A DNA stretch of 64,000 nt from an uncultured Methanomicrobiales archaeon (GCA_963758915.1 CAVWXH010000005.1:68936-132935); one strand, 5' to 3'. Positions 16,322 to 63,521 are shown, counted from the first letter of the stretch. Program-made: numbers and translations. The notes: generated by a model not told the origin, from the sequence alone.

Positions 16322-17044
16322 TTATTCCCCTGCCTGCCTGTTTGAGAGGAATTTTCCCACCAGCCAGGAAACAAGAACCGCGATATACAGCGTACCGATA
16401 ATCATCTCAAACATCGTCACCGTCCGTGCTGTCGATGTAAGTGCTGCGACATTGTAATTTCCCGTGGTCGTGAGGATTGAGAAACTGTACCCGATGTAAT
16501 CAGATATGTACACCAGCTGGTCGGTTCTCTTTGTCACGATATCAAATGACGCTGGTGAAAAAATCTCCATTGCCATTATACCCATAGCCCATGTGAGGCC
16601 GAGGAGGAAGTAGACCGATATTGCCCCGAAAATTGTATCCCTCCGTATTTCACGTTCATGGATGACAACTAAAAAAATTGCAATGCTGACCAGGATAAAA
16701 AATACCAGGGTGACTACAACTGCGGCATGGAAATAATGAGCAATCCCGGTCAGGTAATAGAAGGAATATAAGATAATCGTGATTATCACAAGCACAACCC
16801 CGATGACCATGAGGTGCACGTTGCGACTTATAGCCTGGATTGCAAAGAATAATAAAATTACCAGCAGTATATCAGTGAAAATCCTTGCAGCTTCACTATC
16901 TTCGAGCAGGGGAAGGACAGAAAGGAAAACAATGAGTGCAATGAAATGGAATGTACATTTATTCTCATCCCTCCATTTCAGGAAAGCAGCAGTTTTGTTT
17001 TCTAATGAGCCCTTTATCATGTTTTTGCCGGGTGTGGAGGGCAT
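16322..17044 (-). CDS. Potassium-channel-family (Ion_trans_2-like) membrane protein with atypical filter
   Basis: IFGAISVYFLLG...YSFSILTTTGNYNV...EMIIGTLYIAVLVSWLV matches the pore-loop architecture. Confidence 0.75.
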   Translation of the reverse strand: MPSTPGKNMIKGSLENKTAAFLKWRDENKCTFHFIALIVFLSVLPLLEDSEAARIFTDILLVILLFFAIQAISRNVHLMVIGVVLVIITIILYSFYYLTGIAHYFHAAVVVTLVFFILVSIAIFLVVIHEREIRRDTIFGAISVYFLLGLTWAMGIMAMEIFSPASFDIVTKRTDQLVYISDYIGYSFSILTTTGNYNVAALTSTARTVTMFEMIIGTLYIAVLVSWLVGKFLSNRQAGE

Positions 17045-17224
17045 ATACCAGATGTATCTGCGAATAACAGATATTGTTTTATCTTTAAAATCCGGACCGG
17101 GAATATTCCCTGGACGAAGACTCCACCGTATCGTATATTAGAAATTTCCGGACGGTCCCGGAATCTGAAATGTCCCCCTGGTTTATCCGGAACCGTTACT
17201 TTCACCCTGCCCATGGCAAGATCG

Positions 17225-17246
17225 TTTATATGTCACTCATAGAGTG
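17225..17246 (+). promoter_or_regulatory. Archaeal TATA box (TTTATATG) followed by inverted repeat CACTC-ATA-GAGTG
   Basis: TATA lies about 25 nt upstream of the 5' end of the structured region. No credible + strand CDS follows. Confidence 0.55.
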
Positions 17247-17249
17247 TCT

Positions 17250-17730
17250 AATCGTGTCAGGATCATGCTACCGGGACGAATAGAGCGGACCGGTAACTAT
17301 ACTGGCTGCCATATCAGCCTGTGGTGGCGGCACCAGCCTTGTGCTCCTGGCACAAAGGGGAAACCAGTGATGAATGACCCCTCAAGACAACGGTCTGTGC
17401 CATAATCGTGATAGTTGCACCGTACCAACGACCCCGGCGCCACCAGGGATCGCATGATGCAGGTGAACAGACCTGTTGGAGATCGGGAAACCCGTTGGGC
17501 CGGTAACGCTCATCCGTTACCAGGCTGCCGGAAGAGGCCTGAGATAAACTGAACGTAAGGAGTGATGTAACAGGATCAAGACCCGCCAAAACCCACCTTT
17601 ACAATTGTAGCATACAACAGAGTCCGGTGTCCGGAATAACCTGAGCATGAGGGCCCGGTCCGGAAAATGGTAGATCTGCAGGGGTATACGCAGGAAATGC
17701 GTTTGCGATCTCCCTATAACCAACACGATT
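17250..17730 (+). ncRNA. Candidate large structured ncRNA of unknown class (~480 nt)
   Basis: Terminal stem AATCGTGT/ACACGATT, roughly ten internal helices, crossing long-range pairings, upstream TATA and downstream T-rich tract. No plausible ORF. Confidence 0.65.
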
Positions 17731-17828
17731 TAATTAATATTCAATCTCTTCAATCCATCTTTTTATTGATCACTGACGGTAACATTCCTAGAGAATTTCC
17801 TGACCGTGGCCAGGTATGCCCGGAACGT

Positions 17829-19766
17829 TCAAAGTCCCGGCTGCTGCTGGCTTGCACAGTGGAAGGTCCCGTACCCTTCAACCATTGCCCGGGCATTAAT
17901 CCCGATTACCTCCCGGCCCGGGAAGAGTGACCTAAGAATATGTAAAGCCCGGCTATCCTTGGGATCATTAAAAACCGGGACGATAACTACTGAATTACCA
18001 ATATAGAAATTTGTGTAACTTGCCGGGTACCGGAGATCCCCGTTCGAGACGCTATCCGGCATCGGTAGTTTTACAACCGTTAGCGGCCCCCCGTCCTGGT
18101 CCGTGGATTTTAACAGGGTATTATAATTCTCCTGCAGGGTACGGTAATTTTCATCGGCCCTGTCCTCCTCACATGCACAGACAACGGTGGAAGGGCCGGT
18201 AAACCTCGCAAAATCGTCAATATGACCATCGGTGTCATCCCCTGCGATACCTTCCTCCAGCCATAGTACGTGGTCGACTCCAAGGTTCTCCTTAAGGAAT
18301 GCCTCCAGGTCAGGTTCTGATAATCCTTTGTTCCTGTTCGGGTTAAGGAGGCATGAACGGCTGGTCATGACGGTCCCTCTCCCGTTCACATCGATCGAAC
18401 CCCCTTCGAGGATAATACCCGGGCTGAATACGGGAAGTCCCAGCCAGTCGCTCATCAATTCCGGAATTGTTCCATCCCTGATGAGGTTTTCATATTTTCC
18501 GCCCCACGCATTAAATTTCCACTGCACCATGGCAACCTGGGAAATGGCAGGATTGACAACGAAGGTGGGCCCGTAATCGCGGATCCAGACGTCCTGATAG
18601 TCAGTAACCCGGTACCGGACATGAGAATCGCCCGTCCCCTCCTTACAGAGACGTTCTTTGATCATTTCCCTTGTGCCCGTGTCCCTGACAAGCAGTTCTA
18701 CCGTTTCTGACCCGTGCATTGCAGAAATAAACCTGATATAGGCATCTTCAACTGCACCAATGTCAGGGAATGTCACGGTATTATGGGGCCACGAGAGCCA
18801 TACTGCCTCGTGCCTCTCCCATTCTGCAGGCATGCAAAACCCCGTGTTTCGCGGGGTATCTCCCTTGCGGACGATAAAACGGAGCCCGGTATTGTCGGGC
18901 ATGGTGACGATATTCCCGTATGTATCAGGACGCCGGTTGCGGAAAAAGCCCCATGAATCCTGAATTGTCCGGTTCATCGAGAGATCCAGGTCCGCGATGA
19001 TGATCTCCTCTGCATCTCCTGCACGGGCTATTACCCTGCCAAATGCATCGCTTACAAAAGAACCCCCGAAAAACCTGACTGCCCCTTCAGTTCCCACCCG
19101 GTTAACTGCTGCAACATGGATACTATTGGCAATCGCATGGCTCCGCTGGACCAGTTCCCATGATTCCTGCCAGTCACCTTCCAGGGGATCGAAGCTGAGA
19201 GGCTGGCCGATTGCCGTCGGGTAAAAAATTATCGATGCACCCATGAGAGCGGCGGAACGGGCCGCTTCAGGGAACCACTGGTCAAAACAGATTAAGACTG
19301 CAAAGCACCCGAAACGGGTGTGAAAGATCCGGTACTCATTACCCGGGTAAAAATATCCCTTCTCATAAAAACCAGGGTCCTGGGGAATATGGACCTTATG
19401 GTACGGTGGATGCAGGCTGCCATCAGCATCGATCACAACCGCTGTATTGAAAAAACGGCCATCAGTTGCTCTTTCATATACCGGTACGATAATTACGACC
19501 TGGGAACGCTTCGCGATCGTTGAAAAGAGGTCCGTGGATTTCCCCGGGACGCTCTCAGCAAGAGCTGATGCATCTCTCCGGATGTATTGTGGGAAGTAGC
19601 GGGTACGGAACAGCTCGGGGAGGCAGATAATTTTTGCACCTTTGTCGATTGCGGACTCTACCTTCATGACAGCACGCTGAAGGTTATCTTCAGGGTCTGG
19701 CCCCATTTCCATCTGGACCAGTCCGACTATAACGTTCCGTCCGTCTGCGATGGGTTGGCGCTCCAT
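17829..19766 (-). CDS. Fused N-carbamoylputrescine amidohydrolase (AguB, nitrilase family) and agmatine deiminase (AguA)
   Basis: N-half has nitrilase E-K-C motifs (LPELF, YHKVH, ICFDQWFPE). C-half has MPAEW, WIRDYGP, EGGSID, DTDGHID and GTFHCASQQ. Confidence 0.92.
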   Translation of the reverse strand: MERQPIADGRNVIVGLVQMEMGPDPEDNLQRAVMKVESAIDKGAKIICLPELFRTRYFPQYIRRDASALAESVPGKSTDLFSTIAKRSQVVIIVPVYERATDGRFFNTAVVIDADGSLHPPYHKVHIPQDPGFYEKGYFYPGNEYRIFHTRFGCFAVLICFDQWFPEAARSAALMGASIIFYPTAIGQPLSFDPLEGDWQESWELVQRSHAIANSIHVAAVNRVGTEGAVRFFGGSFVSDAFGRVIARAGDAEEIIIADLDLSMNRTIQDSWGFFRNRRPDTYGNIVTMPDNTGLRFIVRKGDTPRNTGFCMPAEWERHEAVWLSWPHNTVTFPDIGAVEDAYIRFISAMHGSETVELLVRDTGTREMIKERLCKEGTGDSHVRYRVTDYQDVWIRDYGPTFVVNPAISQVAMVQWKFNAWGGKYENLIRDGTIPELMSDWLGLPVFSPGIILEGGSIDVNGRGTVMTSRSCLLNPNRNKGLSEPDLEAFLKENLGVDHVLWLEEGIAGDDTDGHIDDFARFTGPSTVVCACEEDRADENYRTLQENYNTLLKSTDQDGGPLTVVKLPMPDSVSNGDLRYPASYTNFYIGNSVVIVPVFNDPKDSRALHILRSLFPGREVIGINARAMVEGYGTFHCASQQQPGL

Positions 19767-47436: not shown

Positions 47437-47591
47437 CAACGCCGTCCACCGGTACCAGTGATAGTACTGTCGGGTCATACCTGGTACGACGTAGTTCATT
47501 TTATATCCCGACCCGTCGAACTGTTTAGGAATACGGGATGCGTCCCGTGTAGGAATGTAGCTCTGAAAAGAGCTGAACCTTGGTGAATATC

Positions 47592-54321: not shown

Positions 54322-54394
54322 GCCCAGGTAGTGTAGCGGCCCATCATGTCTGCCTGTCACGCAGACGACTCGGATTCGAATTCCGACCTGGGCG
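54322..54394 (+). tRNA. tRNA-Asp(GTC)
   Basis: Acceptor GCCCAGG/CCTGGGC; anticodon arm TCTGC-CTGTCAC-GCAGA. Confidence 0.95.
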
Positions 54395-63447: not shown

Positions 63448-63521
63448 GCCTTAGTAGCTCAGTTTGGGAGAGCGCCAGACTGAAGATCTGGTTGTCCCCG
63501 GTTCAAATCCGGGCTGAGGCA
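63448..63521 (+). tRNA. tRNA-Phe(GAA)
   Basis: Acceptor GCCTTAG/CTGAGGC; anticodon arm CCAGA-CTGAAGA-TCTGG. Confidence 0.96.

Follow-up and report, generated by a model that had tools for sequence, protein, structure and literature searches.

To our knowledge, very few large archaeal non-coding RNAs are known besides ribosomal RNA (rRNA), RNase P RNA, and the RNA of the signal recognition particle (SRP). Among bacterial RNAs, OLE RNA of the Bacillota is a stand-alone non-coding RNA of 0.5–0.6 kb with long invariant stretches between its helices; its biochemical function is unknown, and it is thought to be stress-related. SOS-controlled small RNAs and the radiation-induced Y RNA of Deinococcus are bacterial as well, do not exceed ~100 nucleotides (nt), and act with partners that have been identified (the Ro protein or a target mRNA). 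Here, we analyzed a stretch of 64,000 nt from an uncultured Methanomicrobiales archaeon (GCA_963758915.1, CAVWXH010000005.1:68936-132935; the window), in which a first-pass annotation had proposed a novel, ornate, pseudoknotted RNA with its own promoter at positions 17250–17730. At ~17254–17764 (+), the window contains a stand-alone, single-copy, previously undescribed non-coding RNA gene of ~510 nt. Its novelty concerns the RNA family; a stand-alone non-coding RNA as a general idea is not new. In the explanation that we favor, and to which we give about even chances, this RNA is independently transcribed, single-copy, and genus-specific, is made together with a set of recombination/repair genes by way of a promoter box, and acts in trans.

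None of the 4227 covariance models of Rfam 15 reached its gathering score on the RNA element, and at E ≤ 10 the region 16900–18000 gave only two chance matches, both to small families unrelated to it (E 7.4 and 8.6). Four homologous loci from both of the subtypes described below were likewise free of Rfam matches inside the element. The RNA therefore lies outside known families, as had been proposed, with OLE, GOLLD, ROOL, HEARO, group I/II introns, transfer-messenger RNA, and riboswitches being covered as far as Rfam 15 includes each. The thresholds of the archaeal RNase P (RNaseP_arch, RF00373; 84 bits) and SRP models (Archaea_SRP, RF01857; 96.5 bits) were not reached by the element, which had no match to either at E ≤ 10; the genome encodes its own RNase P RNA on contig C16 (200.5 bits) and its own SRP RNA on contig C10 (184.2 bits). 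Both are comparable to the element as stable structured archaeal RNAs, but are encoded elsewhere in the genome and have upstream regions without the box. OLE RNA is similar in length, in standing alone, and in its long invariant stretches; however, the RNA described here is archaeal, lacks an Rfam match, and is far less demonstrably structured. Moreover, no conserved partner gene adjoins it, although no search was aimed at OLE-associated proteins, and an ion/membrane context is not conserved at its locus. GOLLD and ROOL, which one report presents as large ornate bacterial/phage RNAs (10.1101/2024.12.08.627333), share with the element a large size and an unknown function, whereas the latter has no Rfam match and is chromosomal, syntenic, and single-copy, without a phage or tRNA-rich context. 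A literature search at the level of titles and abstracts, with supplementary files outside its scope, returned nothing on this RNA, and one 2026 preprint, searched by term, did not mention methanogens.

The gene occupies a gap of 784 base pairs (bp; 17045–17828) between flanking open reading frames (ORFs) that end at 17044 and begin at 17829, and the earlier statement that this gap of ~780 bp holds no credible ORF proved correct. The TATA box, TTTATATG at 17225 (TTTATA, 17225–17230, +), is invariant in 10/10 subtype-A and 3/3 subtype-B loci, and with the usual archaeal spacing between TATA box and start site, transcription would begin at ~17251–17257. At the other end, a conserved 3' tail (17740–17766, +), in which TCTTTTTAT is invariant in 10/10 subtype-A loci, runs into five consecutive T residues (T5; 17760–17764) that probably serve as terminator. 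The proposed promoter and downstream T tract are thus both retained among relatives. In subtype B, the RNA ends earlier, at a T4 run, which gives a length of ~490 nt compared to ~510 nt in subtype A. A MAFFT alignment including the flanks showed that conservation sets in at ACTTTCACCC(Y)GC...CGTTTATA and ceases right after the invariant TCTTTTTAT. In one genome (G010), the module of promoter, body, and terminator is kept though the flanks fail to align, because extra DNA adjoins the element. We assigned the gene to the + strand because the box, the TATA box, and the T run lie on it and many helix exchanges are of the U-A/U-G and C-G/U-G type. Regarding coding capacity, none of the 14 distinct sequences contained an open frame across the 460–493-nt body, and only 10/115 pairwise indels were divisible by three. 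The description as a GC-rich block was partly apt: GC content (0.52–0.575) exceeds that of the immediate flanks (0.41–0.47), but the enrichment is modest and close to the level of nearby genes (~0.5–0.55). Altogether, the locus, present as one copy in its own genome, displays the generic features of a stand-alone archaeal non-coding RNA gene, namely a TATA box ~25 nt before the body, an oligo-T run, the lack of a conserved ORF, and conservation confined to the RNA unit, whose ends are predicted from sequence.

Among relatives, conservation begins sharply at an upstream promoter box, ACTTTCACCCTGC (17198–17210, +), located 14 nt before the TATA box and found upstream of the RNA gene in 13/13 genomes of the genus. 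We defined a box set by the occurrence, on the transcribed strand, of ACTTTCACCCYGC followed 10–16 nt later by a TATA-like hexamer. Exact combinations of box and TATA numbered 4 in the own genome and 43 in the 13/13 genus genomes, and they occurred in 87/228 genomes and 10/19 genera of the family; a reversed control pattern yielded 0 matches in the own, genus, and family genomes. A relaxed scan of the own genome (G000) revealed nine sites compared to 0 for the control. According to Pfam, these precede genes for RadA (Rad51 family, 279 bits), an OB-fold SSB/RPA-like protein, Nre, and a Metallophos (Mre11-like) protein, among others; the remaining sites precede a RibD_C protein, a Redoxin/DsbD operon, two unknown small proteins, and the RNA. 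Besides the one in the window, box sites are located at C2:34188(−), C2:39163(−), C3:139783(−), C3:297583(−), C9:197309(+), C10:22915(−), C10:66337(+), and C16:249460(+). In other genera, the box was again found before radA and RPA-like genes. The promoters of RNase P RNA, SRP RNA, and two tRNAs do not carry it. Judging from this distribution, the box looks like the mark of an undescribed recombination/repair regulon of the Methanoregulaceae. No such box regulon surfaced in the literature search, whose scope left aside supplementary files that might list the motif. As the box also precedes radA, RPA-like, nre, and Mre11-like genes, the RNA would be produced together with the recombination/repair set, which offers a concrete and testable idea of its function. 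The box is the more useful by-product of this analysis; it would define a family-wide set of recombination/repair genes.

According to the favored explanation, the box-governed promoter (ACTTTCACCCYGC) would drive the RNA together with the DNA recombination/repair set, and the RNA would act in trans as a structured molecule. Its core would consist of the 5' domain and the pseudoknot, and a partner, either a protein or a nucleic acid, would recognize the 3' blocks, which are invariant and mostly unpaired. A cis element common to recombination/repair genes is also what connects this RNA to the SOS small RNAs and the Deinococcus Y RNA, from which it differs by its length of ~510 nt, its archaeal origin, and a co-regulation deduced from the box. 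We regard it as unlikely that the RNA represents a new class of large archaeal RNAs belonging to a recombination/repair response, in which core and single-stranded blocks build or regulate a repair ribonucleoprotein or act catalytically. If true, no earlier large structured RNA from archaea would have had a tie to DNA-damage control.

Several further observations concern the box-linked genes. Across genera, the box is linked most frequently to a gene for a 146-amino-acid (aa) protein without a Pfam family (L078:1556–1996, +, corresponding to C16:249515–249955 of G000). This protein could, speculatively, be an autoregulated factor of the box; as a genus-specific partner of the RNA it was ruled out by its presence in 102/121 family genomes, and it had no informative Atlas neighbor. 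The box promoter of the Redoxin/DsbD operon is followed by an ORF-free stretch of ~150 nt that ends in CCCTTTTATC (L077, ~1501–1755; C10:66337 onward) and has no Rfam match. In another genus (L145 and L146), ORF-free stretches of 120–170 nt after box promoters end in a T run. These stretches may be leaders or small RNAs. The box-linked Metallophos/Mre11-like gene (L152; C2:32488–34198, −) comprises two overlapping frames of 104 and 301 aa, caused by either a frameshift or an assembly error.

With respect to structure, the 5' domain (17254–17353, +) gave the clearest result. Helix P1 (17254–17262/17345–17353) closes a junction with the hairpins P2 (17269–17274/17290–17295, +) and P3 (GGCUG/CAGCC; 17304–17308/17315–17319, +), and it does so in the minimum free energy (MFE) fold of 14/14 distinct sequences. 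Compared to shuffled sequences, the domain reached a mean z of −3.0, with 12/14 values below −2 and 14/14 below −1. In subtype A, 98.9% of the P1 cells and 100% of the P3 cells are paired; P3 shows a C-G/U-G exchange in this subtype and is replaced by a different hairpin of 7–8 bp in subtype B. In the alignment of both subtypes, the P1 column pair 11/115 is AU in 10 subtype-A and GC in four subtype-B sequences, a compensatory change that represents a single evolutionary event. The three-way-junction domain P1–P3 is therefore strongly supported.

An invariant junction strand, CUGUGGUGGCGG (17319–17330, +), is complementary to 17438–17444 and provides the 5' strand of our best long-range pseudoknot candidate, GGUGGC/GCCACC. 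Within the junction, CTGTGGTGGC is identical in 13/13 genomes, and so are the strand CUGUGGUGGC and GCCAC(C), which follows 104–113 nt downstream and is complementary to it. The 3' strand, CGCCACC (17438–17444), is presented by the loop of hairpin P6 (17429–17435/17446–17452, +). The stems flanking GCCAC differ in sequence by lineage; with GCCAC left unpaired, most lineages can form them. With 95.7% of its cells paired, the pseudoknot is plausible. Of the pseudoknot topology postulated before, the strands GGUGGCG/CGCCACC are conserved in 14/14 sequences, but covariation is lacking and the crossing helix P4 is not established. The constant spacing of GGUGGC/GCCACC, the length of the RNA, and invariant blocks of 10–20 nt beyond simple helices could also be expected of a new ribozyme class, in which a pseudoknotted core carries out cleavage, ligation, or another reaction, and the first-pass annotation had suggested a ribozyme- or scaffold-like function by analogy. 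However, nothing points to a specific chemistry, no known ribozyme family was matched, most of the molecule is thermodynamically poorly folded, and the distribution is narrow, unlike that of widespread ribozymes; we therefore consider a ribozyme very unlikely.

For the molecule as a whole, 17250–17730 contained 46 self-complementary 6-mers compared to 26.8 ± 6.2 in dinucleotide shuffles (0/300 as high) and 17 self-complementary 7-mers compared to 6.8 ± 3.2 (1/300). By contrast, 8-mers were ordinary (4 compared to 1.7; 41/300), the longest match of 8 bp was reached by 221/300 shuffles, and the MFE of the whole element was weak (z of −1.59 on the + and −2.19 on the − strand). With 8-mers and longest match ordinary and the MFE unremarkable, each listed helix of 7–8 bp could be due to chance in a single sequence. 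The strings named at first pass do occur where it had placed them, and their strands are complementary, but not all of these helices withstood comparison with relatives. The paired ends AAUCGUGU/ACACGAUU retain only GUG/CAC, compete with the conserved P1, and rank at the 23rd percentile of decoys; the helix CGGACCGG/CCGGUCCG, incompatible with P2, is reduced to its palindromic CCGG core; and the UUGUGC/GCACAA hairpin clashes with P1 and ranks at the 14th percentile. GGCUG/CAGCC (P3), the 3' arm (P10/P11), and UCCGG/CCGGA hold in relatives. For the candidate helix UCAUGCU/AGCAUGA, 78.6% of the cells are paired, three pairs changed on both sides, and the rank is at the 81st percentile. As decoys, we used the full set of 392 complementary stacks with a length of 5 bp or more in the window sequence, scored on seven distant subtype-A sequences only; P1, P3, P8, and P9a ranked between the 89th and 98th percentiles. 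Our model of 14 helices had 81.3% of its cells paired compared to 32–39% with slid partners, and 21 pairs changed on both sides compared to 14.0 ± 2.2 in shuffles (0/500) and 4–13 when slid. RNAalifold returned differing structures for full and partial alignments. The structure observed consists of a folded 5' domain followed by conserved, largely unpaired blocks.

These blocks, of which 13/13 genomes share about five invariant ones in the RNA, are interspersed with candidate helices in the middle and 3' parts. The candidate long-range helix P4 (17388–17398/17467–17478, +) encloses P6. In the MAFFT alignment, 8/11 of its pairs changed on both sides, but only 56% of its cells are paired; duplexes are present in the individual sequences, yet those of 5 bp are expected by chance. 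The central helices including P4 are not established. The hairpins P7a (17484–17487/17491–17494, +), P7b (17502–17508/17515–17521, +), and P7c (17522–17525/17537–17540, +) are weak, with 70–75% of cells paired, two to three both-sided changes each, and ranks between the 27th and 66th percentiles of decoys.

A block resembling a Shine-Dalgarno sequence plus AUG, AAGGAGUGAUG in subtype A and AAGGAGGGAUG in subtype B (17557–17567, +), is complementary to the 3' end of the own 16S rRNA over 5 + 4 (A) or 6 + 3 (B) bases with one bulge. Its AGGAG.GATG is invariant in 13/13 genomes, so that an mRNA for a tiny protein, a dual-function RNA, or a decoy that binds the 30S subunit through AAGGAG(U/G)GAUG comes into consideration. 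However, by-eye reading of the alignments gave frames of 1–12 codons after the AUG that are unconserved and differ between genomes, and AGGAG is separated from AUG by 2 nt, which is too short for a normal start, as the usual spacing between Shine-Dalgarno sequence and start codon is longer. No other frame is conserved, and binding to the 30S subunit would be pure inference from the complementarity. A role as mRNA or decoy is thus highly improbable.

Further downstream, the conserved block CCCACCUUUACAAUUGUAGCAUAC (17592–17617, +), of which CCACC..TGA is kept in both subtypes, includes the small hairpin P8 (17605–17609/17613–17617; 96% paired, U-A/U-G exchanges, 98th percentile of decoys). The hairpin region P9 (17623–17627/17660–17664 and 17631–17634/17655–17658, +) is paired to 90–94% in subtype A, with P9a at the 97th percentile; in its place, subtype B has a hairpin of 8–11 bp with another sequence and wobble exchanges. 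The 3' arm (17666–17713, +) comprises the conserved block AAUGGUAGAUCUGCAGGGGUA followed by P10, P11, and CUCC. P10 (17672–17680/17704–17711, +) contains one bulged U and is 86% paired, and P11 (17688–17692/17698–17702, +) is 90% paired. Within the arm, GGTAGATCTGCAGGG is identical in both subtypes. By eye, the 3' strand of P10 is altered in two genomes with the bulge shifted and pairing retained, and in subtype B a different segment serves as its partner. P8, P9, and P10/P11 recur in subtype B at the same places relative to the anchors with other sequences, and several hairpins outside the 5' domain are plausible. A by-eye check for a box C/D or other kink-turn, which is characterized by box C-like and box D-like motifs forming tandem G.A pairs beside a 3-nt bulge, revealed GUGAUGU and a conserved CUGA in subtype A with no flanking stem joining them; in subtype B, the alignment has no CUGA at this place. 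Within the invariant 3' block at 17672–17682, the palindromes AGATCT and CTGCAG are adjacent. As a matter of speculation, AGAUCU and CUGCAG might allow intermolecular RNA–RNA pairing, and such self-association would be a further parallel to GOLLD and ROOL.

In the homolog search suggested by the first-pass annotation, a single uncultured genus of the Methanoregulaceae proved to carry the RNA gene in 13/13 of its genomes, 10 with subtype A and three with subtype B. Using blastn, we detected it in 11/12 other genomes of the genus and in 0/28 genomes outside it. Nine of these 11 matches span all or both ends of the element; the other two extend over 26 nt and, by eye, represent the second, strongly diverged subtype B with the same box, TATA box, anchors, and T-run end. 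The twelfth genome also carries subtype B. A three-anchor pattern of 24 exact bases was applied to one genome per GTDB species and gave 16 matches, 12 of them identical to the 12 genus genomes and annotated as Methanomicrobiales or Methanoregulaceae metagenome-assembled genomes, in keeping with the methanogen host assumed before. The other four (Hymenobacter, Blastocatellia, Bacteroides, and Natronococcus) lack the promoter box and the CCACC and GATCT hallmarks and were rejected as chance matches. In JGI metagenomes, 9/12 anchor matches were true, contributing only two new variants of ~88% identity plus near-duplicates; the other three likewise have neither the box nor these two hallmarks and are chance matches. 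Diverged relatives would escape this pattern because of the 24 exact bases required.

A covariance model built from the 5' domain of subtype A, with 25 candidates scored per genome, found the element in 9/12 genomes of the genus plus the own genome, and in 0/138 genomes of 18 other genera. As it barely detects subtype B (14–19 bits), it leaves room for more distant relatives. An alignment built on this model was polluted by antisense matches and discarded. With subtype B as blastn query, the 228 family genomes gave 10 short matches outside the genus, and the two inspected are both coding sequence. Furthermore, none of 19 usable box sites from other genera (20 taken) had the RNA hallmark combination; nearly all are followed by an ORF start within ~70 nt, and three by a later one at 93–191 nt. 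As far as these searches reach, the RNA gene is restricted to the genus. The proteins of the adjacent CN_hydrolase–PAD fusion gene are only 61–64% identical between the subtypes, similar to the 63–67% to the largest sister genus, which indicates that the subtypes are old.

A narrow distribution, a middle and 3' part that seem unstructured, and the extra DNA and unaligned flanks in G010 would suit a functionless remnant left by the decay of a mobile element or protein gene. Yet the element is single-copy, its box, TATA box, and terminator are kept in both of the old subtypes, and the invariant blocks and P1–P3 are maintained, the latter with compensatory change. In addition, the indel lengths are unlike those of coding decay, and the loci examined contain neither repeats nor transposase genes. 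A remnant is therefore extremely improbable.

For transcription of the RNA, we found metatranscriptome contigs inside 17286–17682 in 4/4 runs examined from four studies; parts of the window without contigs were not counted as silent. Among DNA runs, 13 contained half or more of the sampled sequence words. Several points weigh against the explanation that we favor. The contigs are short, may include DNA, and carry no information on strand, ends, or level, and one run also contained a contig in the neighboring gene. The pseudoknot pairing remains a candidate because its strands never vary. P2, P4, P6, and P7a ranked at the 21st–35th percentile of decoys in the MAFFT alignment (P4 at the 35th), which is no better than random complementary stacks and in part reflects misaligned variable regions. 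The middle part (~200 nt; mean z of −0.9) is not clearly more stable than shuffles, nor is the 3' part (mean z of −0.5; 2/14 below −2), so that the term "ornate" overstates a molecule of which only the ~100 nt of the 5' domain are clearly structured. The effective diversity is low, with ~6–7 lineages in one genus. The co-regulation that the box may confer is deduced solely from its distribution. Finally, a partner or target was not found, as complements of the conserved blocks in the own genome were limited to chance-level 11–13-mers.

Regarding the neighboring genes, the downstream one (17829–19766, −) encodes a fusion of CN_hydrolase and PAD_porph (Pfam 1e-57 and 5e-115) of the agmatine-to-putrescine pathway type. 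The divergent upstream neighbor (16322–17044, −) lies outside the element and encodes a 240-aa protein with no Pfam match at 1e-3 and a sub-threshold match to Ion_trans_2 (17.2 bits compared to a cut-off of 22.5). It varies by subtype, being the 240-aa membrane protein, an amino-acid permease, or ICMT/TauE. Because the upstream neighbor changes between the subtypes, the link to ion transport drawn at first pass in the spirit of OLE RNA fails.

The fusion gene, in contrast, keeps its tail-to-tail (convergent) position next to the RNA gene in 13/13 genomes despite the changing upstream neighbor, which would fit an action in cis, i.e., a convergent or antisense transcript or a shared terminator that modulates the 3' end of the CN_hydrolase–PAD gene through transcription or read-through. 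However, the T5 run stops 64 nt before the stop codon of the fusion gene, hence there is no overlap, and the spacing widens to ~340 nt in G010 and ~800 nt in G007, where an extra ORF of 118 aa is present. Synteny inside one genus may be mere inheritance, and 19 syntenic fusion-gene loci in three other genera have no comparable ORF-free gap or hallmark motifs. Antisense interference would, moreover, require neither a conserved 5' domain nor invariant internal blocks. We consider an action in cis distinctly unlikely, and trans action of an independently transcribed RNA continues to be our preferred explanation.

Some minor observations were made at the fusion-gene loci and elsewhere in the window. 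The extra DNA of ~340 nt in G010 separates the RNA gene from the fusion gene (L005), and the 118-aa ORF in the corresponding ~800 nt of G007 lacks a Pfam family (L028). The CN_hydrolase–PAD fusion occurs in 91/121 family genomes. One other genus probably has an unfused CN_hydrolase/PAD gene pair, since its matches were either two adjacent ones or interrupted by one in-frame TGA, and in one genome of the genus (G006), the fusion-gene match contains two TGA codons. Elsewhere in the window, Rfam matches at gathering score are located at 47534–47584, 54322–54394, and 63448–63521; these are an eL15-Euryarchaeota leader (37.0 bits) and two tRNAs.

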